DNA of 64,000 bases, from NCBI GenBank assembly GCA_964016885.1, contig OZ024754.1:11718001-11782000 (forward strand). Direction: 5' to 3'. The notes below the pieces were generated by a model. It worked only from the letters and a program-made list of their open reading frames with translations. It was not told the origin of the DNA and did no database searches. The DNA comes from Eledone cirrhosa. Taxonomy: Eukaryota. Shown here one piece after another: positions 204 to 64,000 of the stretch (position 1 is its first letter; each line of letters starts with the position of its first letter). Made by a program: the position numbers and the translations under genes.

Positions 204-526
204 TGTAATAAACAACATAAGGCAATTATTTCATTTACCAGTGGTTTCTTAAAAGCAAAAAAATGTTGCTTTCAATCATCAGAATGAAAAAAATCCTGGC
301 GTATTTATTGACGTTGGATTTTAAAATCCTTAGGTTTTTAAAATCCAACGTCAATAAATACGCCAGGATTTTTTCATTCTGATGATTGAAAGCAAACATT
401 TTTTTGTTTTTAAGAAACCACTGGTAAATGAAATAATTGCCTTATGTTGTTTATTACATAACTATTAAGCTCTGTTACCTACATAGAGCACTCTTTTTTC
501 CTGGACTCTTCCGACAGAATTACTTC

Positions 527-4686: not shown

Positions 4687-4826
4687 CTTTTAATATTTAA
4701 GGAAGTCTCTTGATGGAAGTCGCATCCTGATATCGCGTAAAAAGGATTATTTTCTTTTGTTTTTGCATTTGATATATTTTACTTCTATTATAATTCCATT
4801 TACAAACCTGTAACTATTATAAGAAT

Positions 4827-7319
4827 ATGTCTGTGGTCGGCATAGATTTCGGAAGCCAGTCTTGTTACATATCGGTGGCTCGTGCTGGTGGTATAGAGAC
4901 CATATCCAACGAATACAGCGATAGATGCACGCCAAGTTATGTTTCATTCAACGAAAACTCCCGATGCATGGGGAATTCATCAAAAAACCAGGCCGTAAGT
5001 AATTTCCGTAATACTCTGTTTGGTTTTCGTGGTTTACTTGGCCGTAAATTCAATGACCCTCAAGTTCAAGAAGAGATAAAACATTTCCCATTCACTGTTC
5101 GATCGGATAATAAAGGTAATATTCTTATTGAAGTTAACTACATGAATGATGTTCACCCATTCACACCAGAACAAGTATCTTCTATGTTATTAACAAAGCT
5201 AAAGAAAACCGCAGAAATAGCATTAAACGCCAAAGTTGTTGATTGTGTTATATCAGTTCCATGCTATTTCTCAGATGCCGAGAGGCGTGCCCTCCTCGAC
5301 ACGACGGGAATGTGCGGTCTCAATTGCTTGCGCCTACTTAACGATACTACAGCCGCATCTCTTGCTTATGGTATTTACAAACAGGATTTACCCGACGAAA
5401 AGCAAAAATCAAGAAATGTTGTATTCGTCAACATGGGTTATTCTTCACTCCAGGTGTGTGTATGTGCTTTCAACAAAGGTAAACTTAAAGTACTTGCTGT
5501 GGCCTTTGATTCTCATCTTGGTGGGCGGGATGTTGATCAGGTTCTCGTTGATTATTTCATAGAAGATTTTAAACAACGTTACAAACTGGATGTTCGCAGC
5601 AAAGTTAAACCCCTCATTCGCCTCACGTCTGAATGTGAAAAAATTAAAAAGCTAATGAGTGCCACCGCGCAACCCGTACAGCTAAATATTGAATGCTTTA
5701 TGGAAGATAAAGATGTATCTGGAAAATTAGACCGGGAGAAATTAGAAGAAATGTGCCAACCTTTGTTTAAAAGAGCCGAAGACACAATGCGTTCGATTCT
5801 GTCGCGATCAAAATTACATCTAGATGATATTCACTCAGTGGAAGTCGTTGGCGGTTCCACGAGAATCCCTGCTGTAAAGGGCCTCATTAAAAAGATATTT
5901 GGAGTTGAAGCAAGCACCACATTGAATGCTGATGAAGTGATTGCTCGTGGTTGTGCATTACAATGTGCTATACTATCGCCAACTTTCAGAGTAAGAGATT
6001 TTTCAATAGTTGATTGCCAGCCTTATGGTGTTTCAATGAAATGGCAAGGATGTGTTAGCGAAGATAACGTTCTTGAGGTTTTCCCAAAATTTCACGTTTT
6101 TCCATTTGCTAAAATGATGACGTTTTATCGAAAAGAACCTTTCCAACTCGATGCTTACTATACCCAGCAAGAAACGGTTCCTATTTTTCAACCCACTATT
6201 GGGTCTTTCAGAATTCAAAATATTACTCCTCAGACGACTGGAGAAAGTTCCAAAATAAAAGTCAAAGTAAAAATTAATATTCATGGAATATTCAACGTCC
6301 CTTCTGCTTCAATGGTGGAAAAGTCTGATAGCACTGATTCTAACAGTGAACCGATGGATTTAGATGAGAAAAAAGAAGCAGAAGATGAGATGGAAACTCA
6401 AACTAATGTCACTGCTAAAACTCCTGAAACATTGGAGTCATCCTCTGAAACATCTGTGCAAAGTGATGAAAATGGAAAACAGTCGACCGAAAAGAAAGAA
6501 CAAACCAATAAGAAAGTGAAAAAAGTAAAAATGATTGATTTGCCTGTGGAAAGCATTGTTCCACAACTTAGTAAAACCCAGCTTCATGGATACTTTGAAA
6601 AGGAAAACCAAATGATTATGCAAGACAAGCTTGAGAAAGACCGTGTGGATGCTAAAAATGCTGTTGAAGAGTACGTTTATGAGATGCGTGATCGTCTGTA
6701 TGGTCCGCTTGAGCAGTTTGTTGAAGAAAATCATCGAAGTGACTTCAGTAAAATGTTGGATGAAACAGAAAACTGGCTTTATGATGAAGGAGAAAATCAG
6801 TTGAAACAAGTATACATTGACAAACTGGCTCATCTTCAGAAATACAGTAACCCTATTTGCAGAAGATATCAGGAAGCTGTAGGCAGGCCAACAGCCTTCC
6901 AAGCACTGGGTGGTGTGCTACAACAGATACGTAAGTTTTTAGATGTATTTTCTAAGAAGGATGAACAATATAGCCATATTAGTGATCAAGATGTTAGTAC
7001 AGTGACAAAGGCTTTAAAAGAAAAGAGTGAATGGTTTGAAAAAAGTCAAAATCAACAGAACCAAAGAAAACCTTTTGAAGACCCTATTGTCACTTGCTCT
7101 GAGATCAATTCTCAAAGACAGAGCTTGGAATCAGTATGTATACCAATTATAAATAAACCAAAGCCTGAACCAAAGAAAGAGGAGCCTCCACCAACTCCTG
7201 AAAATCCAGAAAAGAATTCTTCTGTTCCAAATGAGCCATCTACACAGCAACAGGGCCAAACTGACCCAACTTCTCAGACCAAAGCTGCAGAATCAGATCC
7301 AACTATGGAAGTTGATTAA
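4827..7319 (+). CDS. HSPA4: Hsp110/HSPA4-type heat shock protein (Hsp70 superfamily nucleotide exchange factor), 830 aa, uninterrupted ORF
   Basis: N-terminus MSVVGIDFGSQSCYISVARAGGIETISNEYSDRCTPS; motifs VEVVGGSTRIP, TLNADEVIARGCALQCAILSPTFRVRDF and DAKNAVEEYVYEMRD; acidic loop; C-terminus MEVD. These are diagnostic of Hsp110 (HSPA4/HSPA4L/HSPH1) rather than canonical Hsp70. Confidence 0.96.
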   Translation: MSVVGIDFGSQSCYISVARAGGIETISNEYSDRCTPSYVSFNENSRCMGNSSKNQAVSNFRNTLFGFRGLLGRKFNDPQVQEEIKHFPFTVRSDNKGNILIEVNYMNDVHPFTPEQVSSMLLTKLKKTAEIALNAKVVDCVISVPCYFSDAERRALLDTTGMCGLNCLRLLNDTTAASLAYGIYKQDLPDEKQKSRNVVFVNMGYSSLQVCVCAFNKGKLKVLAVAFDSHLGGRDVDQVLVDYFIEDFKQRYKLDVRSKVKPLIRLTSECEKIKKLMSATAQPVQLNIECFMEDKDVSGKLDREKLEEMCQPLFKRAEDTMRSILSRSKLHLDDIHSVEVVGGSTRIPAVKGLIKKIFGVEASTTLNADEVIARGCALQCAILSPTFRVRDFSIVDCQPYGVSMKWQGCVSEDNVLEVFPKFHVFPFAKMMTFYRKEPFQLDAYYTQQETVPIFQPTIGSFRIQNITPQTTGESSKIKVKVKINIHGIFNVPSASMVEKSDSTDSNSEPMDLDEKKEAEDEMETQTNVTAKTPETLESSSETSVQSDENGKQSTEKKEQTNKKVKKVKMIDLPVESIVPQLSKTQLHGYFEKENQMIMQDKLEKDRVDAKNAVEEYVYEMRDRLYGPLEQFVEENHRSDFSKMLDETENWLYDEGENQLKQVYIDKLAHLQKYSNPICRRYQEAVGRPTAFQALGGVLQQIRKFLDVFSKKDEQYSHISDQDVSTVTKALKEKSEWFEKSQNQQNQRKPFEDPIVTCSEINSQRQSLESVCIPIINKPKPEPKKEEPPPTPENPEKNSSVPNEPSTQQQGQTDPTSQTKAAESDPTMEVD

Positions 7320-7438
7320 ATTTTTTCTCATTTTCTTCCAAATCAAAAGTTGCTGTTAGTTGCAATGATGTAAGTTTGTATTGTTTATCTCAAGTTTTTT
7401 TAAAATTACTATTCAGCTAGATCAACATATATTTTCAG

Positions 7439-7444
7439 AATAAA
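7439..7444 (+). terminator. Candidate polyadenylation signal for Hsp110
   Basis: First AATAAA about 120 nt after the stop codon. Confidence 0.4.
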
Positions 7445-7838
7445 TTTACATTTAAAACTGAAAGAAATAGAAATCTCACAATGCAGAAAATAGCCATTCT
7501 CTTTTGTTTTAAATTTCATCAAGATTTTTAGACTTCATCTTAAATCTTGTGAAAATGACTGAAAATATATTTAGAACATTTTTTTAAAGATATCTAGAAG
7601 AAAAAAGAAAGAATGCTTCTAAAGTGGTGAGAAAAACAATTTGGAACATTGCACATGTAACAAGTTTCCTTTGGAAAATATATTCTATGAAAATGTATCA
7701 GCTTTAATTTAATGTTTTTTTTTTCGTTTCAAAGACTTTTCATTTTTTTCCATGCTAGCATGGGTTGGATAATTACACAATTTGACTTATTTGTAAAAAA
7801 ATTTATACTATGTCTATATGTATATATATGTGTATGTA

Positions 7839-7885
<47 letters not shown>

Positions 7886-10647
7886 AGTTTTTGTCATTAC
7901 ATATTGAAAAGAAAAAATTATAAATTAAAAAAGATATTAAAAAAATTGTTAGTTCATGTTGGAAGTAGTGTTTGACAATATTTTATTTTTATTAAGGCTA
8001 AAAATAATTTAATTTTTCCTGAAAACTTAAAAAAAAAAATGCCAAATTAATTACATCAATAAAATTAGTGATTATTAAATATTGCAATCCTATGTGTTTA
8101 GTAATTTATTGCTGCACTTGGTTGTTGTAAGAATATACAGATCGAGAATCCTTTATCATCTAAAGTGCATGGAGTTGGTGCCACAACAAAAAGAACCCAC
8201 TCCATACTGTAAGTTTGTTTTGCTGGTACCACAAAAGAAAGTTCCCAGTACATGCTATAATGTGGTTTGCATTAGGAAGGGCATCCAGCCATAGAAAACC
8301 AAACCAAAAACGAACTCTATGAGCAAGGCGTAGTCACCTGATCTGTCTAGCCTCGTAACTTGACAACCTGTCTCACCCATACAAGTATGGAAAACAAGCA
8401 TTAAACAACGTTGATGATGATGGTATATGAAATGAGATAACTGAGGGATGGAACAGAAGCTTAAACACATCCATTATACATATACCATGGTCTGAGTTCA
8501 AATCCCGCCGAGGTTAACTTTGCCTTTCATCCTTACGGGGTCGATAAAATAAAGTACCAGTAATGTACTTGTGCCAAAAGTAGAAACAATTATACATATA
8601 CCATAAAGGTAGTTTTATATTAATTACATTTAATTCTACTTGTAAAAAAAAAATATCCCCTAAGAATGCATGATGACCCCCTGCTTATAAAATGTATAAA
8701 ATAATCACTAAACACTATCTAAGTCATGTCAGCACTTGAAAAACTTTGGGGTTTTGGAATTTCAATTCTTAACCTGTCCCAACAATATGTATCAAACAAA
8801 ACTACAAGCTAAAGTAAGGGAGACCACTAGTTCACCATGTGGTACATCAATTACTAAAAGACTGGAAAATCATAACACTCACCTAACTTCAAACATTTTA
8901 AGGCCATTCTCCCTGCTAGAGCCTGTGAAGAGCTGTTTCCTAGTGGCTCAGTGTTGGACTCAAGATTATAAGATCTTGGGTTCTATTCCTGGACTGAGTA
9001 ACGTGTTCTTGAGCAAGATCCTACATTTCACATAGCTTTTCATGATAGGACAAAGACCTCTATCATTAAAACACACCCAAAAAATTTATGAAATGCAACC
9101 TTATAGTGGGCCAGCTAAACCTGTTGCAGGTGCAAGCTGTAAATATCATTTTCATTAGCCTTACAGGTTCTTGTGGGGTCCTTTTTAAGGCAATATTTAA
9201 CAGCTAGTTATCTTTCCTGGCACCAATACTTTTAGTTGTCTCCGACATGCAGGAATATAGTGTATCTATTCTAAATCAGTTATGATGAAAAAACAAACAA
9301 ACTATAAGGTGGGAAAATTAGCAACAGCAATAACAGAACTATCTGGAATTGAATTTTATGTTTATACAATTTAACCCTTTTGTTACCAATCTGGCCAAAA
9401 CTGGCTCTGCTTCTATGGAACAAAATCACCTGTTTTAAAGAGATCCTATGTAATTTAAAATCTTCCAACCTAATGTTATATAAGAATATTTCTGCTTAGC
9501 ACAGAGTAGGAAATGTCGCAAATATATTTCTATTGGTATTTGAGATTATCGATTATCATTTTTTTTTTTAAAGCCAGTTATTTTCCATGAAAAGCCAGCC
9601 TCAGTGGGTGTTATTAGAAATATGGTAACAAAAGGGTTAATAATTGTTTCTGCTTTTGGCACAAGGCCAGCAATTAGCCCAGTGGTACTTTATTTTATCG
9701 ACCCCCCCCCCCCCCCCCCCCCCCGTAAGGATGAAAGACAAAATGATAACTTCACAGATTCAGTCTTGCATAGTTTCCTTTAAATGACATTCATGGAAGT
9801 AATAAGTATGACAATCTTCTTTGCCCACTTATTCCTGAGAGGGACAGTCCTCAAACACTCTCTCCAGTGGGTCCTCTCAGAAGCAACTGATCTGGCTGGA
9901 TCCCCAAGTGAGACCAGCCAAGCTCATGGATGTTATCCAACCATCTTTCTCGGGGACTACCCCTGGGTCGCCTACCTGTTGGTTTCACCTGTAATATCTG
10001 TTTAATTCTTTCCTGAGACATTCTAACCACATGCCCATAATATCGGAGTTGTGATCTCTCAATTCTGAGAAGTAGTGGCTCTATCTGGAATGATTATCTG
10101 AGCTACGCACTTTATTGTGTAACTTACTCCAAAGACCCTTCCAAGGAATCCCATTTCGGCTGCTTGTATTCATGATTGGGTAATAACCAAAAGAATACAA
10201 TGTTTTGTGAAATAATCTCACTATCTTTGCTACTCTGAGAGTCTCCTGCTTGGTAAACAGTACTGTCATGAAATCAAGAATTGAGTCATGAGTGTTACTG
10301 AGTTGGAATTGGTAAGTCTGACTCTACAGCCAATAACCACTTCACCCGGAAATGTTGTGACATTGTGAAAGATCACTGAGGCCGTCTCTATTTGCCCATT
10401 ACTTTATTGAACAAGGGCAAACCTGTCATTACTTTGCAGTTGTTCACCTCTACTAAAGGATAACTTTTGCATATGTGTACATGTTTTTTTTTTTTTTTAT
10501 AAGAACAGGTCTAAGAGAAACTAACCAAGAAGGTAGAGTGATGTTACTTGGAGACCATCTAAAAAAAAAAAAATAGTCATGAGGAGTCACATTGGCCACA
10601 ATTGACAGCAGAGGATGAATTGAGTGAAGTATTTAAAAAAGAACTTG

Positions 10648-11053
10648 CTTCCCTGGGCATGGATTCATTGAAGCTCCGACGCCTGGCAACTGACTTGGTA
10701 AACACCCACAAAATTGTTAACCATGTTGCCAACAACAACCCTGAGTGCCTTTTCGATTTCCATGTGTCTAACACACGTGGACATGCCCACAAAGTAAGAA
10801 AACAGCACAGTTCCCATGACTTTCGGAAACATTTTTTCACGCTCAGAGTTGCTGAAGCATGGAACAAACTACCTGCATCAGTTGTTAGCTGTCGAGACAC
10901 TGCATCCTTTAAGGCCTCCATGCTTCCCGAGATCCGCTAACACATACAAACATGTACTTCCCTGGCATTTGTGTATTATTCTATGTACTATATTGACGAG
11001 TTGTAGTGCACCTGAGCACTTTACACAATAATTTCATTATTATTATTATTATT
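10648..11053 (+). mobile_element. CR1/L2-clade LINE 3' end (RT C-terminus plus (ATT)n tail); other copies 11288-11575, 23035-23143, 35585-36031
   Basis: LGMDSLKLRRLATDL...TRGHAHKV...RKHFFTLRVAEAWNKLP motif; (att)n tail. Confidence 0.85.
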
Positions 11054-13887
11054 AAATTTTGGAAGATTCAATGACTTTAAAATTTAAATCGGCCATATCC
11101 AGCCAGAATTCTCTCACCTCTTTCTGTTCAAACTGGCCGCTCATACTGATGTTAAGGTATTGTTCTCAAAATAAATATCAAAATCTCATAGATTCGATAT
11201 GTAAGATAATTATGTGAAATAAAGACTTTACTGTGAAAATACAATAGTATAAATAGAGTAATGTGAATGCTAAAGGGTTAAAGCTAGACTTTCGGAAACA
11301 TTTTTCATTCTCAGAGTTGCTGAAGCATGGAACAAACTACCTGCATCAGTTGTTAGCTGTTGAGACACTGCATCCTTTAAAACCTCCATGCTTCCTGAGA
11401 TTCGCCAACACTGCACTTGATGTCCCTCCTCCATACACACACACAAACAATGTATTTCATGACTTGTACACTGTTCATTTTCCTGACATTTGAACATTAT
11501 TCTTCTTTTTATTATTATATATACTATACATGCACCTTTGATGAATTGTAGTGCACCTGAGCACTTTACACAATTTCGTGGATTGGCAGTATCGGTAGGT
11601 CTGAAACCATGCTTTGCAGCAAAGAGTTACGGCCCTTTATGGTCTGAGTTCAAATCCCTCCGAGGTTAACTTTGCCTTTCATCCTTACGGGGTCGATAAA
11701 ATAAAGTACCAGTAATGTATTGGTTAATTGCTGGCCTTGTGCCTATATAAGAAACAATTATTATTTAATACTGAGTTCCATATTGTCTTATTTGTTCTCT
11801 CACATTGCACATTTCATCTAACCTTAGAGAGGATGGCTATTCTGCTTTGCCCAAATCTTTTGAAAGTTCTGTGGTTGTTCTACAAAGGTGCTAGACTACT
11901 GATCTTGTAGTTTTGCTTTGATTAAATGCCTCAATATTTGTTCAAGTTATGTGCACTCTGTGTTCAAATCCCACCAAGATCAATTTTGCCTTTCGTCCTT
12001 TCGGGGTCAATAACCTAAAGTACGAGTCGATTTAAACAACTTCCCCCTCCCTCTCCAAACTGCAAGACTTGCACCTAAATTAGAAATTATTTGTCACATT
12101 CGAAGATGATGATGATTCATGAAAAATTATGGTAAAAATATATTATATGGCAGTATATAGTGTTATTTCGAGAACTGAGGGAGAAACTAGGTTTAAGAGG
12201 AATATGAAGTGGTGTGCAAGAGAGAAGACTACATTGGTACAGGCATATGATGTACATAAATGATGATTGCTGAGTGAAGAAGTGTCAGGAAATCCCAGTG
12301 GTAGGAAGTTGCAGTAGAGATAGACTAAGGAAGAGATGGTGAGAGCTGATCTTAAATCACTGAGATGACAAAGGAACACGATGAGTGGAGAGATGCTGTA
12401 CTGAAAAGGACCCATGGCCATGCAAGCATATAAAAAATTATATATATATATATATGAAGGCGTTGCAATCGAAAGGTTGTGAGTTCAATTCTCAGATCGG
12501 GTTATGTGTTGTTTCCTTGAGCAAGACACTTTATTTCACATTGCTCCAGTTTAATCAGCTGTAGAAATGAGATGATAGGGACTGGGGTCTATATCATTCC
12601 ACTGTAAAGTGGTCGTGTAGGCGCCATGGAAAAAAAAGCACCCAGCACTCACTGTAATTGAGGTTGGTGTTAGGAAGGGCATCCAGCTGTAGACATCAAG
12701 CCAGAAACAGTTCCCGTCCCACCCTTACAAGCAGGGAAAAGTGGACGTGAAATGAAATGAAAGGCGATGAATTGGCAGTTGTTAGGTCAGATAGACTGCT
12801 TTGCAGTATTCGTTTCAGTTCGCTGTGGTCTCATTTCAAATCCTGATGTGATCAGCTTTGCTTTTCATACTTTCAAGGTCAATCAATAAATACCAGCTCA
12901 GTACTGGTTCGATTATTTTATATCTCCTTACTTTCTTTCTATCATTCTTGAGAGGAAATTGGCTGTGTTCAGATCTGGAGAGGGAATGGGCTCTGCCAGG
13001 TTTATAATTTCCAAGGTACGTATGTCACTATGTTACCTCTACAACTCCATCATGAGTTATTTGAAAATCATAGGCAGTCTTTCATTAGGAATATTGATTA
13101 AACCAACCACAAACCTTGACAGATACTTTATTTTGTCAACCCCAGCAAGATGAAATGCAAAGTTGACCTTGGGGGGGGATTTGAATCCAGTGTATATCAT
13201 CATAATCACCGTTTAACATCTATCTTTCCACACTAGCATGGGTTAGACAGGTTGTCCTGCTCTGAGACAAGTCAGATCAGATGACTGTGTCTTGATCATA
13301 CAGAACTGTTTCTGGCTTTACTAATGCCAACCACATTTACAGTGTGGAGTGGGTGTTTTCTTTATTGTGGCACCAAAATGACTACTTTACAGTGTGGAGT
13401 GAGTGTTTTTTGTCATATATATATTTATGTAAAAACCTTTGCTAAGTTACATTATGAAATTCTTCCAAATATTCTTGATTATTTCCAAGACACTAAAAAT
13501 CAATGTCAGCTTTCACTAGAAATATCATCATTTCTTGACACACACGTGATTCTGAGTGGATGGGTTGAATAAATTGTTTAGAGGTAGTTTTGTGTATTGC
13601 AGCAATACTTTAACTCTTTAGCATTTAAACCAGCTGTATCCACTCACGTCTTTCTGTTCAAACCAACTGTAAATGGCCACTCATACTGATGTTAAGGTAT
13701 TGTTCTCAAAAGAAATCTCAAAATCTCATAGATTTGATATGTGAGATTAAAGTCTTTACCATGAAAATATAATAGTATAGAGTAATATAAATGCTCAATG
13801 GTTAAACAGGTTAGCTTATGTTAAACTGAATGCCAATTTCTGAAAAACAACATACACATTAATTGAAATAGTAAACAATCTTTATTA

Positions 13888-13923
<36 letters not shown>

Positions 13924-15713
13924 TAATTCAAATAAAAAGGGGGGAGCTTAGATTTTGGTTTTTTAAATAAGCAAATATAAAACCATAGAAGAAAGAAAGC
14001 AAGCTATATGTATTTTATAAAAAAAAAAAAATTAAAAAAAATTATAATACAAAATGAGAAATGTCAATAGACTTTACTTAGAGTGCCTGACTCTATAAGT
14101 ATAATTGGTAGTTTCACGGAGGATTGTAGATTGTTGAAATAGTTTATCCTTTGCTTCATTTAAAATAAGGAAAATACTATACATCAAACGTTTTGCATAT
14201 AATATAATATATTGAGAATAAATTAATATGTTGGAAAGACATAAAGACAGTAGTACTAGTAGCAGCAACTTAAAATTTAAATTTCGGAGAGCTGCAATAA
14301 GGTTTTTAAATTAAAACAAATGGGAGCGCAGCACATAATTTCAAAATAAAACTTAAAATATCCAATATTTGGTGAATAACAAAAAAGAGAATTTGTATAA
14401 GTGCGTGTTCTCAGAAATCTGCAACCAATATTTATGAAGATTGGTGTGTGTATATGTATGTATATATATATTAACAGTTCCCAACCTGGGGTCTGCAAGC
14501 TAAGTTCAAAATTTCAAGTACTTTGTTAAAAAACATACGCACATGCTTTTGGGCATCCATCCCTATTTTTTTTTTTAATTTTACAATTGTTATTCTCACT
14601 ATATAACAATCTGGGGGTGGGGTGGAGAGGTCCATTGGAAAATTCATTTAAATGATAGGGACCCTAGGAGTGAAAAGGTTAGGGACCACTGGTATATATA
14701 TATATATATATTATATATTATATATATATATACACACACACACACAATATATATATATAATATATTATATTATATATATATATATATTAGATATGGAAGA
14801 CAGGCATAATTTGCGCTATCAAGAGGTTTACAAAAAAAATCTCTATGATCATAGCTAAGGCAACCTAATACTTGGCAAGTTTCAGTAAAGTTGACTAGAT
14901 CACTATGCTTGCAATGTTCTACTAAAACACACTATTAATAACTTCTTGAAATGCTTATTTGTATTTATTTAACATTTATCACATTGTAATCTTAAACAGA
15001 TCATTAACCACAATAACAATTTTATTTAATTCTTTCGTTGCTGATTGTAAATATTCTCAACAGCAGAAAAATACTTTATTCCACTCATTCAAGTTTTAGA
15101 ACCAGATTTCTGAAGGGTTGGATGCTGAATGCTATAAATTAGAGATTTCCCTGATACTAAATTTCAGCCCCATATGACTAGTAACTGGCCTCATGTAGCA
15201 GTGAAAGTATTTATTGTCAAATGGAAGATGTGTGTGTGTGTGTGTGGGGGGGGGGTTATGAGGATTGATATTAGAGCTAAAAAGATTGGAATTAGACATC
15301 ATTTATGACAACAATGTTGTTTAATCAACAGAACAACCTGCTTGAAGAATTAATGTGTAAGTGGCTGAGCATTTCACAGATATGTGTATCCCTATCATAA
15401 TTCTTAGAGATTCAAAGCTGGCCCTTTAAATTACATGACATTTTTATGAGCAAGTGGCTGAGCATTCTGCAGACATGTGTATCGTTAAGGTAGTAATTCT
15501 TAGAGATTCAGCATAGCACAACGTATAACAAAGCTGGCCTTTTGAATTACATCCAATAGTTTCCATTTACGTAATTTCAATCACAATGCTTGGGTCATCC
15601 CAAGACTGTAATGTGTTAATGGTAAATAACATAACCAAGATGAAACACTGGGAACTAATGACCTTGAAGTGAACTTCTTTAAACCTTTCTACCATACTGT
15701 GAACACTCTAGTA

Positions 15714-16135
15714 TAGGGGTGGCCAAACTACGGCCCGCTAAAGAATTTTGTGTGGCCTGTGGAAACATTTGACAAAAGAAAAAAAAAAACAAAAAAAAAA
15801 ATCAACAAATTTTCCTATATAATACTTAATCCGAGACTAGATCTAGTTACATTTTTGTTCAGGTATGTTCTGTGATGTACAGACACAAATTAAAAGAAAA
15901 CTGTTATAAGATTTTTGTATTTAATCATTGTATTAATTTATGTATTATAATGATGCAGTTTATATTTTATATTTTCTAAATTCTAACTGAAGAAAAATAA
16001 GGTTACTGGCACACTATATCCAATACTATCTAGTACTGTACTATACTATATCCAATACTATTAAATGGTGTGGTCCTCTGGTGTTCATCACCCAGTCAAT
16101 GTGGCGCCCCAATCCAAAAAGTTTGCCCACTCCAG
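15714..16135. mobile_element. hAT (Charlie-type) MITE with 8-bp target site duplication
   Basis: TIRs taggggtggccaaact / agtttgcccactccag; TSD ctctagta at 15706-15713 and 16136-16143. Confidence 0.85.
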
Positions 16136-16898
16136 CTCTAGTAGATAAATAAATAGAATATGGAGGCTAGACAGATCAGGTGACTACGTCTTGCTCATGC
16201 AATTCATTTTTGGTTTGGTTTTCTACGATTGATGCCCTTCATAATGCAAACCACATTACAACATATACTGGGAACTTTTTTTGTGGCACCAGCAAAACAA
16301 ACTTAGAGCTACTGAACAATTTTCAATAAAAACTCAAGTGGGACAAAATTTGTTTATACAGGATCCTATTGTTTTTATATTAGGATTTTAGACAAATAAC
16401 AGAGAGGGGAAGTCGATAATATTGATCACAGTGCTTGACCGGTACTTTATTTTAACAACCCCTAGAAGAATGATAGGCAAATTTGACCTTGGACCGATTT
16501 GAACTCAATGTAAAGAGCTGGAACAAATACTTTTGTTCACAACTCTGGAGTAGCAAATAATTCTAATGTAGACACAAGGCCAGGGGTTTGGGGGTGGATA
16601 AGTAAATTACATTGACTTCAGTACATGACTGGTACTTTATTTTATTAGAGTAGCAAATAATAATAAAAATAATAAATATTCTTTAATTTAGAATTTTCAA
16701 CTAATGAAACCATTCTTTTTCATTTAAATATTTATGAGTTTTTATCAAGAATAATTTACATAATATTGAAAAAGAAAAATGTACTGTGTGCTTGCAATCC
16801 ATGTGTATATATATATCATTCATTATATATATTGTTCATTATATACAGTTAAATTATAAAGGCAAAATTCCAATCAGATATTTAGAGAACTCATTTCA

Positions 16899-17286
16899 TT
16901 AACTCTTAACATCCTGTAATGATTTAGCTGAAAATAACTAAAAACGGGTTTGTTAATTCAAATGTTTATATCTTTACTAGTGGACAAATTGTTGTGAAAA
17001 TTTGCAGTAAACTAAAGACTTTGGGATGCAGTCAAGGTGATGTTTTGTACTTTTCAAGAATGTTAAGCTATAGTGGTTTCATTTGATATTAGAGTTAAAT
17101 ATTAGAATATCTAAAATTGGGTTTGTTTATTCAAATGTTTATGGTGTCTTCACGAGTAAACACATCACTGAAAGTTTACAGTAAACTAAATAATTATTAA
17201 TGTGATGCAGTCATGATACTATTTTGTACTTTTCAAGAATGTCTTGCTAATGTGGTTTCATACGGTACAGGATGTTAAAGAGTTAA
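16899..17286. mobile_element. TTAA-flanked MITE (TIR ctcttaacatcctgta); relatives at 24911-25424 and ~27480-27883
   Basis: ttaactcttaacatcctgta...tacaggatgttaaagagttaa. Confidence 0.7.
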
Positions 17287-18496
17287 AGGGAGAAAGAATG
17301 CCAAAAGCCAATAATGATTCTTGGTCCCAATACAATGTCATGTATATTTATTTATATTTTTTTGTTCCTGTTTAAGCAGACTCATCCCCACAACTGAATA
17401 ATGCCAGTATTTTGAAATAAATAAAAATAAACTTACAAAGATCAAGCACACATTAGACTAGATTTAAAGAAAGATAAAAAAAATTGGTTTTTACATAGGC
17501 ATAAAGTCACAAATATTTTTGGGAAGAGAAACGCGATTGTACGATGTTCATGCCTTTCCCAAGGGTACAAATTAAAATGTAATATACAGCTCACTTGTGT
17601 ATGTTTAGCTGGTCTCCTACAAAGTTGCATCCCATTGGAGGTTTCATGGATGTTTTAAGAATAGGGACAAACCCAGTCCTATAATGAAAAGCAATGTGAA
17701 ATGAAGTGTCTTGCTCAAGAACACAATGCGTTGCCTGGTCAAGAAATTGAACCCGCAATCTTATGATTGTCAGTTGAACACCCTAACCACTAGGCCATAT
17801 GCCTTCACAAGGGAGGAGAGGAGTCTAGTAACTGGAGTGATGTGATGGAACTACAGTTGGGGAATTAAAACCAGTTCTTGGTGTTAGTTCAACAGAGAAA
17901 GAGAGAGAGAGAAATATAATTAGAATAGAATATTAGATACAGCTGGAGCATAAAAAACAAACATTTATAAAGGAGATATAATTTCTTTGGCAAAAAAAAA
18001 AATGTTCCACTTAATATAGAACAAAATTTGTTGAGCAAAATAAAATAAAAATCATGCCTATATACATATATAGGCATACAAACATGGAAAAAACAGACAA
18101 AAAACAATGATGATACATACATGTATTAATTTATGTATGTATACATATACATATATATAAGTACCAGTCCAATACTGGGGTCGATTCTTCCTTAATAGAA
18201 AAAATCGGCTGTGTTCAGACCTGGAGAGGGTTGGGCTCCACCAAGTTTAAATGTGCCCTAGACGTGCCATATGACAGTGCCGCTACAACTCCACAAGGAG
18301 TTATGGGATCTTTATTAGACACACACACATACTGGATATTAAACAATTATTTTTTTCCACTGTTACAAAAACAATACATGAGATTAACATAAAAAATAAA
18401 TATATAATCAAAACTAATAAACAAAAAAGAAAAAAAAAATCACAAAGGCAGAAACATAAATGTTATTAATACTGGTTAGGTTGAACGACTTAATAT

Positions 18497-18711
18497 TAAC
18501 CCTTTAGCATTTAATCCAGCCATATCTGGCCAGAATTCTCTCACCTCTTTCTGTTTAAACTGGCCATAACCAGCTGCACATACTTATGTTAAGGTATTTT
18601 TCTCAAAATAAATAGTATCAAAATCTCTTAGATTCGATATTATGTGAGGTAAAGCCATTACCGTGAAAATACAATAGTAAATATAGAGTAATGTAAATGC
18701 TAAAGGGTTAA
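18497..18711 (+). mobile_element. piggyBac-type MITE (~210 bp; TIR CCCTTTAGCATTTA, TTAA target); copies at ~11077-11281, 13611-13805, 29247-29461, 36239-36468, 39676-39890(-), 39891-40671 (interrupted), 46709-46916(-)
   Basis: ttaaccctttagcattta...taaatgctaaagggttaa; conserved interior gccagaattctctcacctctttctgttcaaac. Confidence 0.85.
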
Positions 18712-21198
18712 ATCATTTTTGATTAATGTTTTCTTAATAAAAACATCCAAAATATACCTTTTTTCAGTAGCAATTCCTTATTTTGTGTTGATTTTAAGAT
18801 GATATGAATGAGACCAAAAAACGAAGGGAGGATTAACTGTAAATTCACACAGTGAGATACATTTTTATCATTAAATGAGCAGTTTAAGTTACAGGGGGTA
18901 CTAAAGAAAATAATACTATCTTAAAGACAGGGCTGGCACCTGGGTATTTATCACCCTAGGCTAGCTCTACTATGTGCACCTGGGTATTTAGCACCCTAGG
19001 CTAGCTCTACAAAATAATTTTAACTTGCAGTTTGGCAAGCTAATGATGCTAGTTTTTGACAATTTTTGTTCTGACCACACTAAGAAAATTACTAAGCCTG
19101 AATTGTCCACTGCACAGTCCACATTCACTCATGCTACACCATACAAACCCTCTCTGCAGCTTTTGATAATTCCACAATGCTGCTCTGCAGTGAATATATT
19201 GATCACAGGAAATTATATATTTAATTTAATTATACTGATCCTTTAAAGGTCCAGAATGGGTCTCTCTCTGAGGTCTACACCCTAGACAGCTGCTTAGGTG
19301 GCCTTAATGATAATGCCAGCCCTGCTTATTCAGACAGTGAGTCTTGTCATTAAAAAAAACATTCACTCAATCTTTTTAAAAGCAGTTTACACAATTAAGG
19401 AGGAGACAATAAAAAGAAATGACCCATTTCATTGATGTAATAAGTTAATGTAGTATAATATATATATATATATATATATATTAATATGGTCAGCTGAAAT
19501 GCTCATAGGCTGACCACAGATATTCTCATTTAATGACCAAATGAGGTTTACTTTTCAGCAATGCAGTTAATAAGATTTGAAATTAATGTATGCAAGATTT
19601 CACAACACTAGCATCACTCCTTCATAGTCAGCCTCTGAACATTTCAGCCAATTCTCATATATATCATCACCGTTTAACATCTATTTTCTATGCTTGCATG
19701 GGTTAGATGGGTTATGTTATGTTATGGAGCTAGCCAGATCAGGTGACCACGTCTTGCTCATACAATGTTTTTTGGCTAGGTTTTTTTACAGTTGGATGCC
19801 CTTCCTAATGTCAGCCATATTGCAATATGGCTGGCATTAGAAACAGCATCCAGCTACAGAAAAGCAAGCCAATATATATGTATATATATTATACATACGT
19901 ATATTAATTTTTATGAAAACTATAATATCCTCATTTAAAAATTCAGTTTGTGGCAGATGAAAATAAAAAAAAAAATCATTGAAATATTGATTAAACAAAA
20001 AATATATATAAAAGCTATTTCAGTAATCTGACGCGTATATGTGTGTGTGTGTGTATGAGTATGTGAGTGTTTTAGAAAGACAAAAATATTTAATTATATA
20101 AGAAGCAGTTTCAGGGTTGAAAATGAAAAAAAAAAATTGTTTAATTAAATTAAAAAGTAGAAAGGAATTTTTAAGAGACTTGATATTGATATATACACCC
20201 TTACACACACATCTGTGCATAGAATGCATATATCTTTAAAGAAAGTATATGTATACATACATAAACAAAACGAAACCAAAGAGTAGTTATACAAAACAAT
20301 GATCTGGTGATTCACTTGCACATTCTTACATAGATATACATCTGTACAGACTGAGAAAACCAGCTCTCATCACTAATAAACAATGTTTATATTCAGTCTT
20401 TAAACACAGCTAGCTGGCTTCTTTTGTACATATTTCTTTTGTACAATTTTATTTAAATACAAGTTAACGTTGAAGGTATTTTTCTTTGTGGAAGTTCATA
20501 GAAAAATACAAAGCATGTTCGTATAAACATCAAAATCAAATTGATGTCAAATTGTTTTGTTTTTTTTATAATATAGTTATCAGTCTTATTTTTTCTGTCT
20601 CTTAAATTTTAAAACATCCAACTCCAACCAATTTTCTTTACTTTCAAGAATGGAATGGATGAAAAGCAGAAAAGAAGAAAGAGTGAGAGAAATGTATGCA
20701 AATATATGATATATAACATATATAGTATATATAAAATATATTTAGTGCATATGATATATATGATATATAATATATATAGTATATATGATATATAATATAT
20801 ATAGTATATATGATATATAATATATATAGTATATATGATATATAATATATAATATATTATATATATAAATATATATATATATGATATATATATGATATAT
20901 ATATATATATATAGTATTCTATTATTAACAGGCACAGCAAATATCAAATATTTCTAACTCGATACTCTATAACTGAGCAAGATATTTTTTGTGGGGAAAG
21001 GAAAAAAAAAAACACCCAAAACATTTGCATGCATCGTAGCACACAATAAGTGGGGGATGGTGGCTGGAATTTACGATGTAGGAATTTCTTTTTTTTTTTA
21101 CTTTATTTTATTTATTTATTTATTTATTTATTCATTTATTTATTGTCTTAATAAAGAGAAGAGAATAAAAGAGACAGGTAAGCAATATTTTGGGATAC

Positions 21199-45448
<24,250 letters not shown>

Positions 45449-48769: not shown

Positions 48770-50255
48770 TCTTCTCAGTGATTCTTTCCCGAGACATTCT
48801 AACTACATGCCCGTAGTATCTGAGCTGTGATCTCTCAATTCAAAGAAGTAACAGCTCTACTTGGAGTGACTTTCTGAGCTATGCACTATCGAGTAACATT
48901 ACTCAAAAGACCCTTCGGAGGAACCCCATTTTGGCTGCCTGTATTCGCAATCGTATTATTACAGTCATTACCCAAGATTCATGACCATAGGTAAGGGTTG
49001 GCATGAATACCGAATTGAAGATAGCAAGTTTGGCTTTCACACCTATCTCCCTTCTGATTACTGAATGCTGAAGCTGGCACATTACTGCACCAGCTCCAGC
49101 AATTCTTGCACTTAAGTCAGCCTCCTGCCTGCCATCACTTGTGAACACAGCCCCAATATACTTGAACTTCTGCACCTGCTTCAGTGAAACTCCATTCACA
49201 TGTCATCACTTGTGAACACAGCCCCAATATACTTGAACTTCTGCACCTGCTTCAGTGAAACTCCATTCACATGTCATCACTTGTGAACACAGCCCCAATA
49301 TACTTGAACTTCTGCACCAGCTTCAGTGAAACTCCATTCACATGTCATCACTTGTGAACACAGCCCCAATATACTTGAACTTCTGCACCAGCTTCAGTGA
49401 AACTCCATTCACATGTCATCACTTGTGAACACAGCCCCAATATACTTGAACTTCTGCACCAGCTTCAGTGAAACTCCATTCACATGTCATCACTTGTGAA
49501 CACAGCCCCAATATACTTGAACTTCTGCACCAGCTTCAGTGAAACTCCATTCACATGTCATCACTTGTGAACACAGCCCCAATATACTTGAACTTCTGCA
49601 CCAGCTTCAGTGAAACTCCATTCACATGTCATCACTTGTGAACACAGCCCCAATATACTTGAACTTCTGCACCAGCTTCAGTGAAACTCCATTCACATGT
49701 CATCACTTGTGAACACAGCCCCAATATACTTGAACTTCTGCACCAGCTTCAGTGAAACTCCATTCACATGTCATCACTTGTGAACACAGCCCCAATATAC
49801 TTGAACTTCTGCACCAGCTTCAGTGAAACTCCATTCACATGTCATCACTTGTGAACACAGCCCCAATATACTTGAACTTCTGCACCAGCTTCAGTGAAAC
49901 TCCATTCACATGTCATCACTTGTGAACACAGCCCCAATATACTTGAACTTCTGCACCAGCTTCAGTGAAACTCCATTCACATGTCATCACTTGTGAACAC
50001 AGCCCCAATATACTTGAACTTCTGCACCAGCTTCAGTGAAACTCCATTCACATGTCATCACTTGTGAACACAGCCCCAATATACTTGAACTTCTGCACCA
50101 GCTTCAGTGAAACTCCATTCACATGTAGAGTGCACTGCACAGGCTTCCTTGAGAGGACAAATGTCTCAGATTTCACTGCACTGATTTTCATTCCAGCGAT
50201 GCAGCACCCAGCCTCAAACACACCGAGTGCAAGTTGGAGATCACCTTCTCTCGAG
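48770..50255 (-). mobile_element. RTE-like LINE RT fragment containing an internal 14 x 71-bp tandem amplification; related decayed copy at ~9880-10270
   Basis: GMKISAVKSE...VQKFKYIG...PTLTYGHESW...IQAAKMGFLRR. Confidence 0.85.
49133..50126. repeat. 71-bp tandem array, 14 near-identical copies, derived from LINE RT coding sequence
   Basis: gtgaacacag recurs at 49141, 49212, 49283 ... 50064. Confidence 0.97.
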
Positions 50256-52776: not shown

Positions 52777-53303
52777 TAGATAAATCTACCAAGAGTTTAC
52801 GGTAGTGTCCAATCCGTATGAAGAACTCAATGTATTCCGGATATCATGGAAAGAAGAGATGTAATGAAAATCCACTTTCGGTGAAAGATAAACGGTATAC
52901 AGAGTCAAGATAAAATATTAAACAAATAATGAACAAACAATTCCTTATATTAAACAAAAAAAGTTCACTATTTAACGATCGTTTCTAGGGTATATATGTG
53001 TTATAATTGGTATGCATATTTAACAGATCTATGTACAAAATTATACAAAATTATACAAATTATCAAGATTAAATATACATACCTAACTCATATATACGCA
53101 GTCTTCAGAAAAATGAAGACGGCGTATATATGAGTTAGGTATTGTATATTTAATCTTGATAATTTGTATAATTTTGTATAATTTTGTACATAGATCTGTT
53201 AAATATGCATACCAATTATAACACATATATACCCTAGAAACGATCGTTAAATAGTGAACTTTTTTTGTTTAATATAAGGAATTGTTTGTTCATTATTTGT
53301 TTA

Positions 53304-54425: not shown

Positions 54426-55048
<623 letters not shown>

Positions 55049-57998: not shown

Positions 57999-58481
57999 AT
58001 ATATATATATATACATATATACATATATATATATACATATATACATATATATATACATATATATATATATACATATACATATATATATATATATATATAC
58101 AATATATATATTAACATATATATATATATATATACATATACACATGTATATACATATACACATATATATACATATATACATATATATACATATACACATA
58201 TATATACATATACACATATATATACATATACATATATATATACATATATACATATATATACATATATACATATATATACATATATACATATATACATATA
58301 TATATACATATATACATATATACATATATATATATACATATATATATATATACATATACATATTGAGCTCAGCTGTCGGGGGTCTTACTGGTTCCTATTA
58401 CCCACTCTACTACTTCAAGTATTGAGTACTTTGGTGCGTTATGGTCCACCTGGTTCCTTACCACATTTCCTTCGTTATATA

Positions 58482-58513
<32 letters not shown>

Positions 58514-58555
58514 ATAAATAACAAAGAACGCTTATAGCATATGCATATCTTTACT

Positions 58556-58601
58556 TGCTAACATTGTTTCATCCGCACTATAAGTGGGACTCATCAGAGC
58601 A
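58556..58601 (-). ncRNA. Minimal type I hammerhead ribozyme motif
   Basis: Reverse complement: tgct CTGATGA gtcccact-tat-agtgcggat GAAA c-aat-g TT agca. Stem I tgct/agca, stem II, GUU triplet. Confidence 0.72.
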
Positions 58602-59115
58602 TAAAGGTTAATTACATACCATACAAGCAATAACAAATCCAAGACATTGAAGAATGAAAGGTAATAATAGACGATAAAGGATAAGAATAAAAATAAAAGT
58701 AAAAATAAAAATAAAAATAAAAATAAAAATAAAAATAAAAATAAAAATAAGGGGTGCTATCAGTCACAGTTGGGCGGGGTGCTGTCAACATATAGTTACA
58801 TACAAGCATACACATGGATAAGAGAACAGACAAGAGTAGACACATGGATAAGAGAACAGACAAGAGTAGATAAGATAATGGGATTAGGTAAGAGTAGGTA
58901 AAAAATAGGTAAAAAATAGGTGAAAAACAGACTTATAATATATATTAAAAAGAAATACAAATACAAATACAAATATGCATATATATATATGCATATATAT
59001 ATATACATATATATATGCATATATATATATACATATATATATGCATATATATATATATGCATATATATATATATGCATATATTTATATGCATATATATAT
59101 ATATATATATATGCA

Positions 59116-59147
<32 letters not shown>

Positions 59148-59325
59148 CATATATATATATATATTTCGTTTCTGAATTTGTTTAGCAAGATTCTTTATCT
59201 GAAATCGTGTGTTGAAACCGATATTGTTATACATGACCCTCCCAAAGTATAACAATATATATATATACATATATATATATACATATATATATACATATAT
59301 ATATACATACATATATATATATACA

Positions 59326-59493: not shown

Positions 59494-59599
59494 TATGCAA
59501 AGTATGGGTGCATAAAAGATGTAGTGGGATCACAGGTAAGCTAACTAAGAACATAGATTTTATGTGGCCGGTGTTCTGGTGCAATAAGTAGCAGCAAGT

Positions 59600-60590
59600 G
59601 CCCACAAAATACTAGCTCTTTCAATTGTGCAGAGGGTTCTATAGAAATAGTGGACAGCTTCCGTTACCTGGGCGATAAAATCAGCAGTGGGGGAGGGTGC
59701 TCTGAAAGTACTGTAGCTAGAGTCAGAACTGGTTGGAAAAAGTTCAGAGAGCTTATACCACTATTAGCTGCTAAAGGGTTCTCCCTAAAAATGAAAGGCA
59801 GGTTGTACGATGCCTGCATACGAACAGCAATGTTGCATGGCAGTGAGACCTGGGCATTGTGTGCAGAGGATATACGCAGACTAGAGAGGAACGAAGCTTG
59901 CATGCTCCGCTGGATGTGTAACAGTAATATACGTGAACGGCAAAGCATAAACGAACTAAGGAAAAAATTAGAGATAAGAGGGATCAGATGTTGTTTACTC
60001 GAGAGAAGTCTACGTTGGTATGGACACGTGATGCGCATGAAAGTCGATAGCTGTATAACAAAGTGCAGGGCAATAAAGATAGACGGTAATCACGGAATAG
60101 GCAGACCTAGAAAAACCTGGGACGAGCTGATAAACTCCGACCTCTCACACACTTACACCTCTCCAAGACAATGTCACTGGACCGAGACCTTTGGCGGTAC
60201 TCAGTAACAGAGAAGACCCGCCTTGCCAGTAGGCATCTCTAACAAAATACACCCCGAACCGCCACCACCCCCACCCATCCACACCACCCCGTCCTATGTA
60301 AAGTTATGTTGGTGCCGCGCCATCCAGGCCGAAACAAACGAGATCGTGTAGGTGTCACGACAAAAAAACAACACAGTCCACGCTGTAATGTGGCCGTGTA
60401 GGCAACACGGTAAAAACCTCCCAGACCCACACTGTAAATGTGGTTGGTGTTAGGAAGGGCATCCAACTGTAGAAAACCTGCCAGACAGTCCTATGCGAGC
60501 AAGACAATCACTCTTGCCTCAAGTGGGACTACCCCCGTCCAAACCCATGCAAGCGTGGAACACGGACGTTAAACGTTGATGATGATGATG
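59600..60590 (+). mobile_element. RTE-clade LINE 3' fragment (RT C-terminus, 3'UTR, (GAT)n tail)
   Basis: DSFRYLGD...MLHGSETW...LRWYGHVMRM...GRPRKTW; tail ggacgttaaacgttgatgatgat. Confidence 0.9.

Positions 60591-64000
<3,410 letters not shown>

Follow-up and report, generated by a model that had tools for sequence, protein, structure and literature searches.

The window analysed here is a stretch of 64,000 nucleotides from Eledone cirrhosa (contig OZ024754.1). It carries the gene for Abi on its minus strand, with residues ~40-443 of the Octopus protein mapping to 45490-21202 and an Abi exon 97% identical to those of Octopus vulgaris and Argonauta. A 10-kb TA satellite in the same window holds an island of about 465 bp, on whose minus strand a hammerhead ribozyme motif was read. 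No match was found in the window for Abi residues 1-33, and the island, which lies in sense orientation to the gene, is therefore probably situated in the first coding intron. The earlier note had placed the island on the Abi strand and within a presumed large first intron; the strand assignment holds, while the intron placement is a probable one, inferred from the residues that could be mapped, with exon 1 outside what matched. Elsewhere in the window we observed an uninterrupted 841-codon HSP110/HSPA4-like frame (4794-7319), whose closest matches are from cephalopods (86% in O. sinensis and 79% in Argonauta). With a second octopod paralogue that is only 53% identical, the frame suggests an old intronless duplicate. 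The best identities of this frame and of the Abi exon both mark the host as an octopod. Three homogeneous minisatellites at 31417-33258, 37895-39036, and 49133-50126 have units of 40, 56, and 71 bp in 46, 21, and 14 copies, respectively, and the 71-mers are 99% alike. On the plus strand, 59557-60207 resembles the C-terminal fragment of a LINE reverse transcriptase without Pfam support, which by its motifs we take to be RTE-like.

Table 1. Features of the hammerhead-bearing island, in window positions.
Feature	Position	Strand	Basis
Type I hammerhead motif	58556..58601	-	Sequence, pattern scans, fold
Predicted cleavage site after GUU	58559..58560	-	Sequence; a contig passes into (TA)n at 58560
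Helix III region, odd palindrome ACA-A-UGU	58561..58567	-	Monomer pair probability at most 0.01; two-copy fold
Extended helix I, enclosing the ribozyme in a ~100-nt hairpin	58530..58628	-	Fold prediction
Repeat unit of ~465 bp, likely a 3'-terminal unit (pLTR equivalent)	58514..58975	-	Sequence; depth in run X1
(UUUUUA)n tract inside the unit, (AAAAAT)n on the plus strand	about 58687..58750	-	Sequence
Exact 30-bp tandem duplication	58811-58840 / 58841-58870		Sequence
38-nt (TA)n at the 3' side, likely insertion target	58476..58513		Sequence
(TA)n/TGCA tract at the 5' side	58974..59163		Sequence

The features of the island are collected in Table 1. Read along the ribozyme strand, the unit ends at 58513/58514, while its 5' end is blurred by repeats at about 58972-58980. 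It has a GC content of 28%, and 50% of the minus strand is U. The internal A-rich repeat, the short duplication and the flanking (TA)n described earlier are all present in the sequence, and one contig from run X6 contains a single unit of the 30-bp duplication. The ribozyme does lie near the 3' end, its predicted cut being 46-47 nt away, as is typical of sense-strand hammerheads of Penelope-like elements. No target-site duplication could be read in the 38-nt (TA)n (58476..58513). At the end of the segment 58757-58815, the 5' arm of the extended helix I is nearly repeated.

The 46 letters quoted in the earlier note correspond exactly to the minus strand of 58556-58601. All of the core nucleotides claimed there could be read from the sequence, namely CUGAUGA at 58597-58591, GAAA at 58570-58567, U16.1 at 58561, and U17 at 58560, and the predicted cleavage after GUU, between 58560 and 58559, agrees with these letters. 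The type I hammerhead core (C3-U4-G5-A6-N7-G8-A9, G12-A13-A14, A15.1-U16.1, H17) is complete, and the pair probabilities indicate that helices I and II are able to form around it. Helix II has 4+4 bp, a bulged C, and a 3-nt loop, and its pair probabilities are 0.92-1.0. Its closing pair is G10.1·U11.1 (58590/58571) and not G-C as in the first reading; the G10.1-C11.1 pair is highly conserved among hammerheads, not absolutely so. A perfect 4-bp stem I had also been claimed. The inner helix I, UGCU/AGCA, indeed has 4 bp (pair probabilities 0.27-0.66), but helix I extends well beyond it, continuing after a 2-nt bulge with 5 bp and then two 7-bp helices to 58628/58530. The outer helix I duplex has a predicted energy of -15.9 kcal/mol; when the 3' arm was shuffled 2000 times, 31 of the shuffles paired at least as well and the remaining 1969 did worse. 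Helix III of the motif amounts to one pair with the loop AAU.

The description of the motif as a canonical minimal hammerhead did not survive comparison with the definitions of Cervera and de la Pena (2014, PMC4209133). The minimal hammerhead ribozymes (min-HHRs) defined there have no loop 3 and carry an extra base between A9 and G10.1, whereas the island motif has a helix III with its AAU loop, no base after A9, and G·U instead of G-C at 10.1-11.1. Nor is it canonical by the same definitions, as it lacks the canonical helices of 6 bp and 4 bp. The two do share a long 8-bp helix II, a 4-bp inner helix I, a U-rich 5' flank, and a palindromic helix III region, and the min-HHRs are mostly dispersed single motifs (PMC4209133). 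A bulge in helix II is found in the min-HHR variant of Drosophila virilis, GUU and U before GAAA also occur in min-HHRs of other species, and the island motif resembles variants in the same article whose helix III is small and palindromic.

In the predicted fold of a single copy, the palindromic helix III is practically absent (pair probability at most 0.01), and the hammerhead fold of the monomer lies 4.5-5.4 kcal/mol above the predicted minimum. For two copies, a double-hammerhead fold reaches -20.0 kcal/mol in comparison to -14.6 kcal/mol for two monomers, while the unconstrained minimum of the two-copy chain is lower still at -27.3 kcal/mol. By these models the helix III region would be unstable in the monomer and could pair between two copies. 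A G·U pair at 10.1-11.1 slows hammerhead cleavage. Almost no ribozyme activity is predicted for a copy on its own. GUU is among the cleavable triplets, with GUC and GUA being cleaved fastest (PMC3138052).

The island had been called unique. This is true inside the window, where a search for dispersed copies found no second one, but the sequencing runs show a high-depth repeat. Sampled words from the island, or from a part of it, were found in 20 of the 24 listed runs, four of which contained at least half of the words. Contig-level alignment to the island covered four of the 24 runs and 108 contigs. In run X1, 86 contigs matched the island and covered both of its halves, 52 of them at an identity of at least 99%. 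Single contigs free of differences had depths of 2,655 (58592-58652) and 2,804 (58763-58839), and variant contigs had depths of 5.8 and 11.2 against 1,000-2,800 for the deepest contigs. Such contig depths cannot be read as copy numbers, and X1 is a run of unrecorded kind. Only one substitution at a level of at least 5% was present in the whole unit (58880), and none fell inside the ribozyme. Even so, the depth gap of two to three orders of magnitude, together with genomic-looking TA junctions, suggests that the family is young and has many nearly identical copies. Because the family is homogeneous, the G·U pair and the GUU triplet would be family letters and not the decay of one copy. The depth in run X1 was 9,400-23,600 over 58513-58656 and 4,800-12,000 over 58769-58928; this step fits 3'-anchored copies, but it also depends on contig fragmentation and was not counted as evidence.

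The loose ends of the contigs carry information on how copies are truncated. In the contig comparison, 58671-58756 and 58941-58980 were skipped as repeats, which places the true 5' end outside its view. Six of the seven loose ends keep the 3' side in the ribozyme sense and lose the 5' side, and the opposite polarity was seen in one (run X6, 58589). Three run straight into TA repeats, at 58548, 58560, and 58583, one turns back on itself perfectly at loop II (58582), and two, from runs X1 and X4, pass into a sister sequence that diverges at 58815. Multiple copies, including 5'-truncated and inverted ones, as known from Penelope-like elements, are thus indicated by the contigs, though by a small number of ends. 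The junction at 58560 coincides with the predicted cut within one letter shared with TA, a coincidence expected by chance in 6-8% of cases for three junctions, and is a lead only. The sister sequence shares 58757-58815 with the island (59 bp with 4 differences) before it diverges, has a depth of 270 in run X1, and may belong to a longer partner element.

Near-identical pieces of the island were also present at low depth in runs X4, X6, and X7, which are labelled as three other organisms. One X4 contig continues for 81 letters past the 3' end of the island, and the X6 and X7 pieces are records of 151-172 letters with depths of 2-8. Two other samples of organism C contained next to none of the island words. 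We make no claim of horizontal transfer, as carry-over, diet or a close relative would fit the low-depth pieces equally well. Word shares of 0.09-0.19 in further runs were not counted as evidence, and RNA runs, compared like the others as contigs throughout, contained at most 0.11 of the island words. Exact-pattern scans revealed no relatives in metagenome contigs, viral contigs or prokaryote genomes, which is unsurprising for an animal repeat.

The (TA)n target, the position of the ribozyme, the U-rich strand, the depth, the polarity of truncation, and the one fold-back junction lead us to a Penelope-like reading: the island is quite probably one copy of a highly repeated, homogeneous unit of ~465 bp, likely the 3' end of a Penelope-like element placed in (TA)n. 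The earlier note had proposed a solo pLTR of such an element. As a lone 3'-terminal unit this is still the best reading, but no copy was found joined to a frame for a reverse transcriptase and GIY-YIG endonuclease, either among the window frames scanned or in the run contigs, which are short. Pfam gave no match to a reverse transcriptase or endonuclease in 195 of the 345 frames of at least 45 aa (those from 21666 on) or in five short extra frames. Two further islands, 59164-59252 and 60800-61021, which were candidates for upstream coding remnants, likewise had no Pfam match. Craig et al. (2021, PMC8557442) describe Penelope-like insertions that form partial tandems or are inverted and 5'-truncated, sometimes with a tail on one side, most insertions are solo 3' ends according to a 2026 preprint (10.64898/2026.07.22.740005), and 31 recently active Penelope-like families are reported from O. 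vulgaris (PMC13282606). Whether the unit is a dedicated short non-autonomous element or belongs to a pile of 5'-truncated longer copies is about an even choice.

The closest published case is the Hydra clade of Penelope-like elements, although the clade assignment is only a lead. Members of this clade target (TA)n and carry a hammerhead near the 3' end, and they include Hydra-1_Obim of Octopus bimaculoides, which is described as having no pLTR but a common end; the clade itself is defined by its proteins, a reverse transcriptase with RWK and DKT motifs and an endonuclease without CCHH (PMC8557442). The (TA)n target is shared by the island in its flanks and at three contig junctions, but it is not diagnostic, as Naiad and Neptune share it. 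Like Hydra-clade elements such as Penelope-17_HM, the island has a single type I hammerhead, located near its 3' end, and its helix III is an odd palindrome that starts with AC and ends with GU, as in that clade. According to the table of Craig et al., U stands at the cut in 10 of 25 Hydra families, compared to GUU in the island, and the cut is 30-50 nt from the end in 10 of 24 (one family with a 5' motif left out), compared to 46-47 nt. Counted by eye, U before GAA occurs in 17 of the 25 families and its combination with G after A9 in 3 of the 25; the island has both. U at 11.1 is common among Hydra-clade motifs, as in the G·U pair of the island. On the other hand, helix III spans 9-10 nt in all 25 families in contrast to 7 nt here, and a by-eye comparison with the published 3' UTR of Hydra-1_Obim gave no likeness outside the core. 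The island also differs from Hydra elements in having no reading frame, a longer, microsatellite-expanded unit, and possibly its long extended helix I. We found no published description of the island family in a search that covered sources other than subscription papers, Repbase, and Dfam. For two motifs of its ribozyme, the O. vulgaris supplement (PMC13282606) contained no match and the Craig supplement (PMC8557442) a single unrelated one.

Further elements of interest were observed in the window. An inverted pair at 200-463 (centre 331, arms 97% alike) is followed by a one-sided tail of 66 nt, and the whole, 200-529, lies between (TA)n tracts. Its arms contain type I hammerheads at 236-282 (minus strand) and 379-426 (plus strand), with a 7-bp helix I, a 9-nt palindromic helix III, and a GUA triplet, and here the hammerhead fold is the predicted minimum. 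The cut is 36 nt from the end, as in the published Hydra-1_Obim. This pair is closer to Hydra-clade elements than the island is, and its arrangement is that drawn for Penelope-like elements; the pair and the island belong to different families. Penelope-type elements therefore occur in the genome of Eledone cirrhosa. A motif of 10 letters in the tail (484-493) is by eye also found at the ends of Hydra consensus sequences and is not rarer than chance in the window. In the TA satellite, a palindrome of ~450 bp (54557-55008, 97-98%) has min-HHR-like arms with a change of U4 to C in the core; the hammerhead fold is not the predicted minimum, and the palindrome may be a further inverted pair of the Penelope type whose ribozyme is dead or variant. 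Another palindrome of ~310 bp (52913-53221, 97%) at the edge of the TA satellite contains a CUGAAGA half-core near its centre. A (TA)n-flanked repeat is present in three copies (58363-58475, 103-161, and 33503-33705). Between two of these and the 3' end of a hammerhead unit, the island in one case and the 200-529 pair in the other, the (TA)n spacer is exactly 38 nt long, and the 33503 copy has its own inverted front end. This repeat is likely another TA-targeting element whose tail served as a target.

Several other explanations of the island were weighed against the Penelope-like reading. A chance match to the hammerhead consensus could be argued from the covariance models: this check, which the earlier note had proposed, called no hammerhead from Rfam at the gathering score, where the window gave no match to any family, or at E-values up to 10, where any matches were noise from the TA repeats, even though the island has the same catalytic core letters and three-way topology as the Rfam hammerhead families, and the folding energy of the 46-mer is ordinary (z -0.85). 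The motif nevertheless exceeds chance. The core pattern matched once in the window against 0.03 matches expected, with matches in 3 of 100 shuffles, and when the helices were also required, 1 of 300 block-wise dinucleotide shuffles gave a match of the strict class and 23 of 300 gave some looser one. The motif is moreover placed as in Penelope-like elements and has their unusual letters, which leaves the chance reading largely refuted and very improbable. Equally hard to credit is a ribozyme kept by the host for cutting the Abi pre-mRNA, in the manner of the conserved intronic hammerheads of amniotes. The sense orientation and the probable location in the first coding intron would suit such a role, but the copy does not differ from the majority sequence of a repeat with high depth, it sits in a 10-kb TA satellite, and its helix III is not formed in the monomer.

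The remaining alternatives concern the type of mobile element. The island could be a dispersed monomer of a non-LTR retrozyme, in which tandem arrays are transcribed, hammerheads release monomers of ~465 nt that form circles, and these are reverse-transcribed back into the genome. Non-LTR retrozymes are likewise short non-coding units of low GC with a type I hammerhead and a dimer-type helix III (Cervera and de la Pena 2020, PMC7229834; Li et al. 10.64898/2026.07.22.740005). The weak palindromic helix III and long helix I, the GC content of 28%, and a size near the published 150-450 bp (PMC7229834) all speak for this alternative, which is known from a mollusc (PMC7229834) and for which solo monomers are described (10.64898/2026.07.22.740005). 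Against it, the helices of the island are not of 6 bp and 4 bp, and no tandem copy was found in the window and no joint between copies in the 108 contigs, a weak argument given that the contig comparison passed over the repetitive ends. The unit is also not highly self-paired, its circular form having 37% of its bases in pairs (z +0.7 circular, 60 shuffles, and +0.5 linear), in contrast to the highly self-paired circles published (PMC7229834). We consider a retrozyme unlikely, and since the 2026 preprint derives retrozymes from Penelope pLTRs (10.64898/2026.07.22.740005), this alternative grades into the Penelope-like one. A composite SINE-like or other non-LTR unit with a borrowed hammerhead end, moved by a LINE and not a Penelope enzyme, would account for the sister sequence of runs X1 and X4, where sharing of 58757-58815 followed by divergence indicates that parts are swapped between families, and on the plus strand (AAAAAT)n resembles an A-rich tail. 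However, neither ARAGORN nor Rfam detected a tRNA head in the unit (0 hits each), both sides of (AAAAAT)n are covered at similar depth without differences, and the truncations have the polarity of the minus strand, where (AAAAAT)n reads as an internal U-rich tract. Such a composite is decidedly improbable.

Returning to the Penelope-like reading, published work on these elements offers a possible course of events. According to Frangieh et al. (2024, PMC11167929), AT-rich DNA is cut by the Penelope endonuclease, and the 3' end of an insertion is set by the point, internal to the RNA and downstream of the ribozyme, at which reverse transcription begins. By analogy, the GIY-YIG endonuclease of a partner element would nick AT-rich DNA, and its reverse transcriptase would start ~46 nt downstream of the ribozyme cut and copy towards the 5' end. 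Early stops or fold-backs may leave solo 3' ends and inverted pairs. Help from a dimer or a protein has been reported for the activity of related hammerhead motifs (PMC4209133, PMC11167929), and the ribozyme of the island is predicted to cut after GUU only as a double hammerhead formed by pairing of the palindromes, or with protein help. Tandem transcripts would thereby be cut into RNA of unit length. On its own and in sense orientation within the presumed Abi intron, the island copy should cut poorly and would be a tolerated passenger.

Penelope-like elements that target (TA)n and carry a terminal hammerhead are known already, including one case in an octopus (PMC8557442). What the island would add is one more hammerhead-bearing repeat family of the Penelope type. 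A stronger claim, to which we give only a small chance, is that of a young, dispersed, non-autonomous octopod family that parasitizes Penelope elements, with hundreds of near-identical copies, some of which start exactly at the ribozyme cut. If this were true, mini-copies of 46-47 nt would be a DNA record of Penelope-type hammerhead cutting in vivo, with reverse transcription starting inside the RNA and running off the cut 5' end. The function of the hammerhead in Penelope-like elements is described as unclear (PMC8557442), and in an anole element, the only one tested, no RNA ends were reported at the cut site (PMC11167929). A homogeneous family with many truncated copies is well suited to the counting of 5' junctions, in which a pile-up at 58559/58560 would show cleavage in vivo. 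Likewise, the family-wide G·U pair and GUU triplet suit the study of weak, dimer-dependent ribozymes that may be tolerated in sense orientation in host introns.
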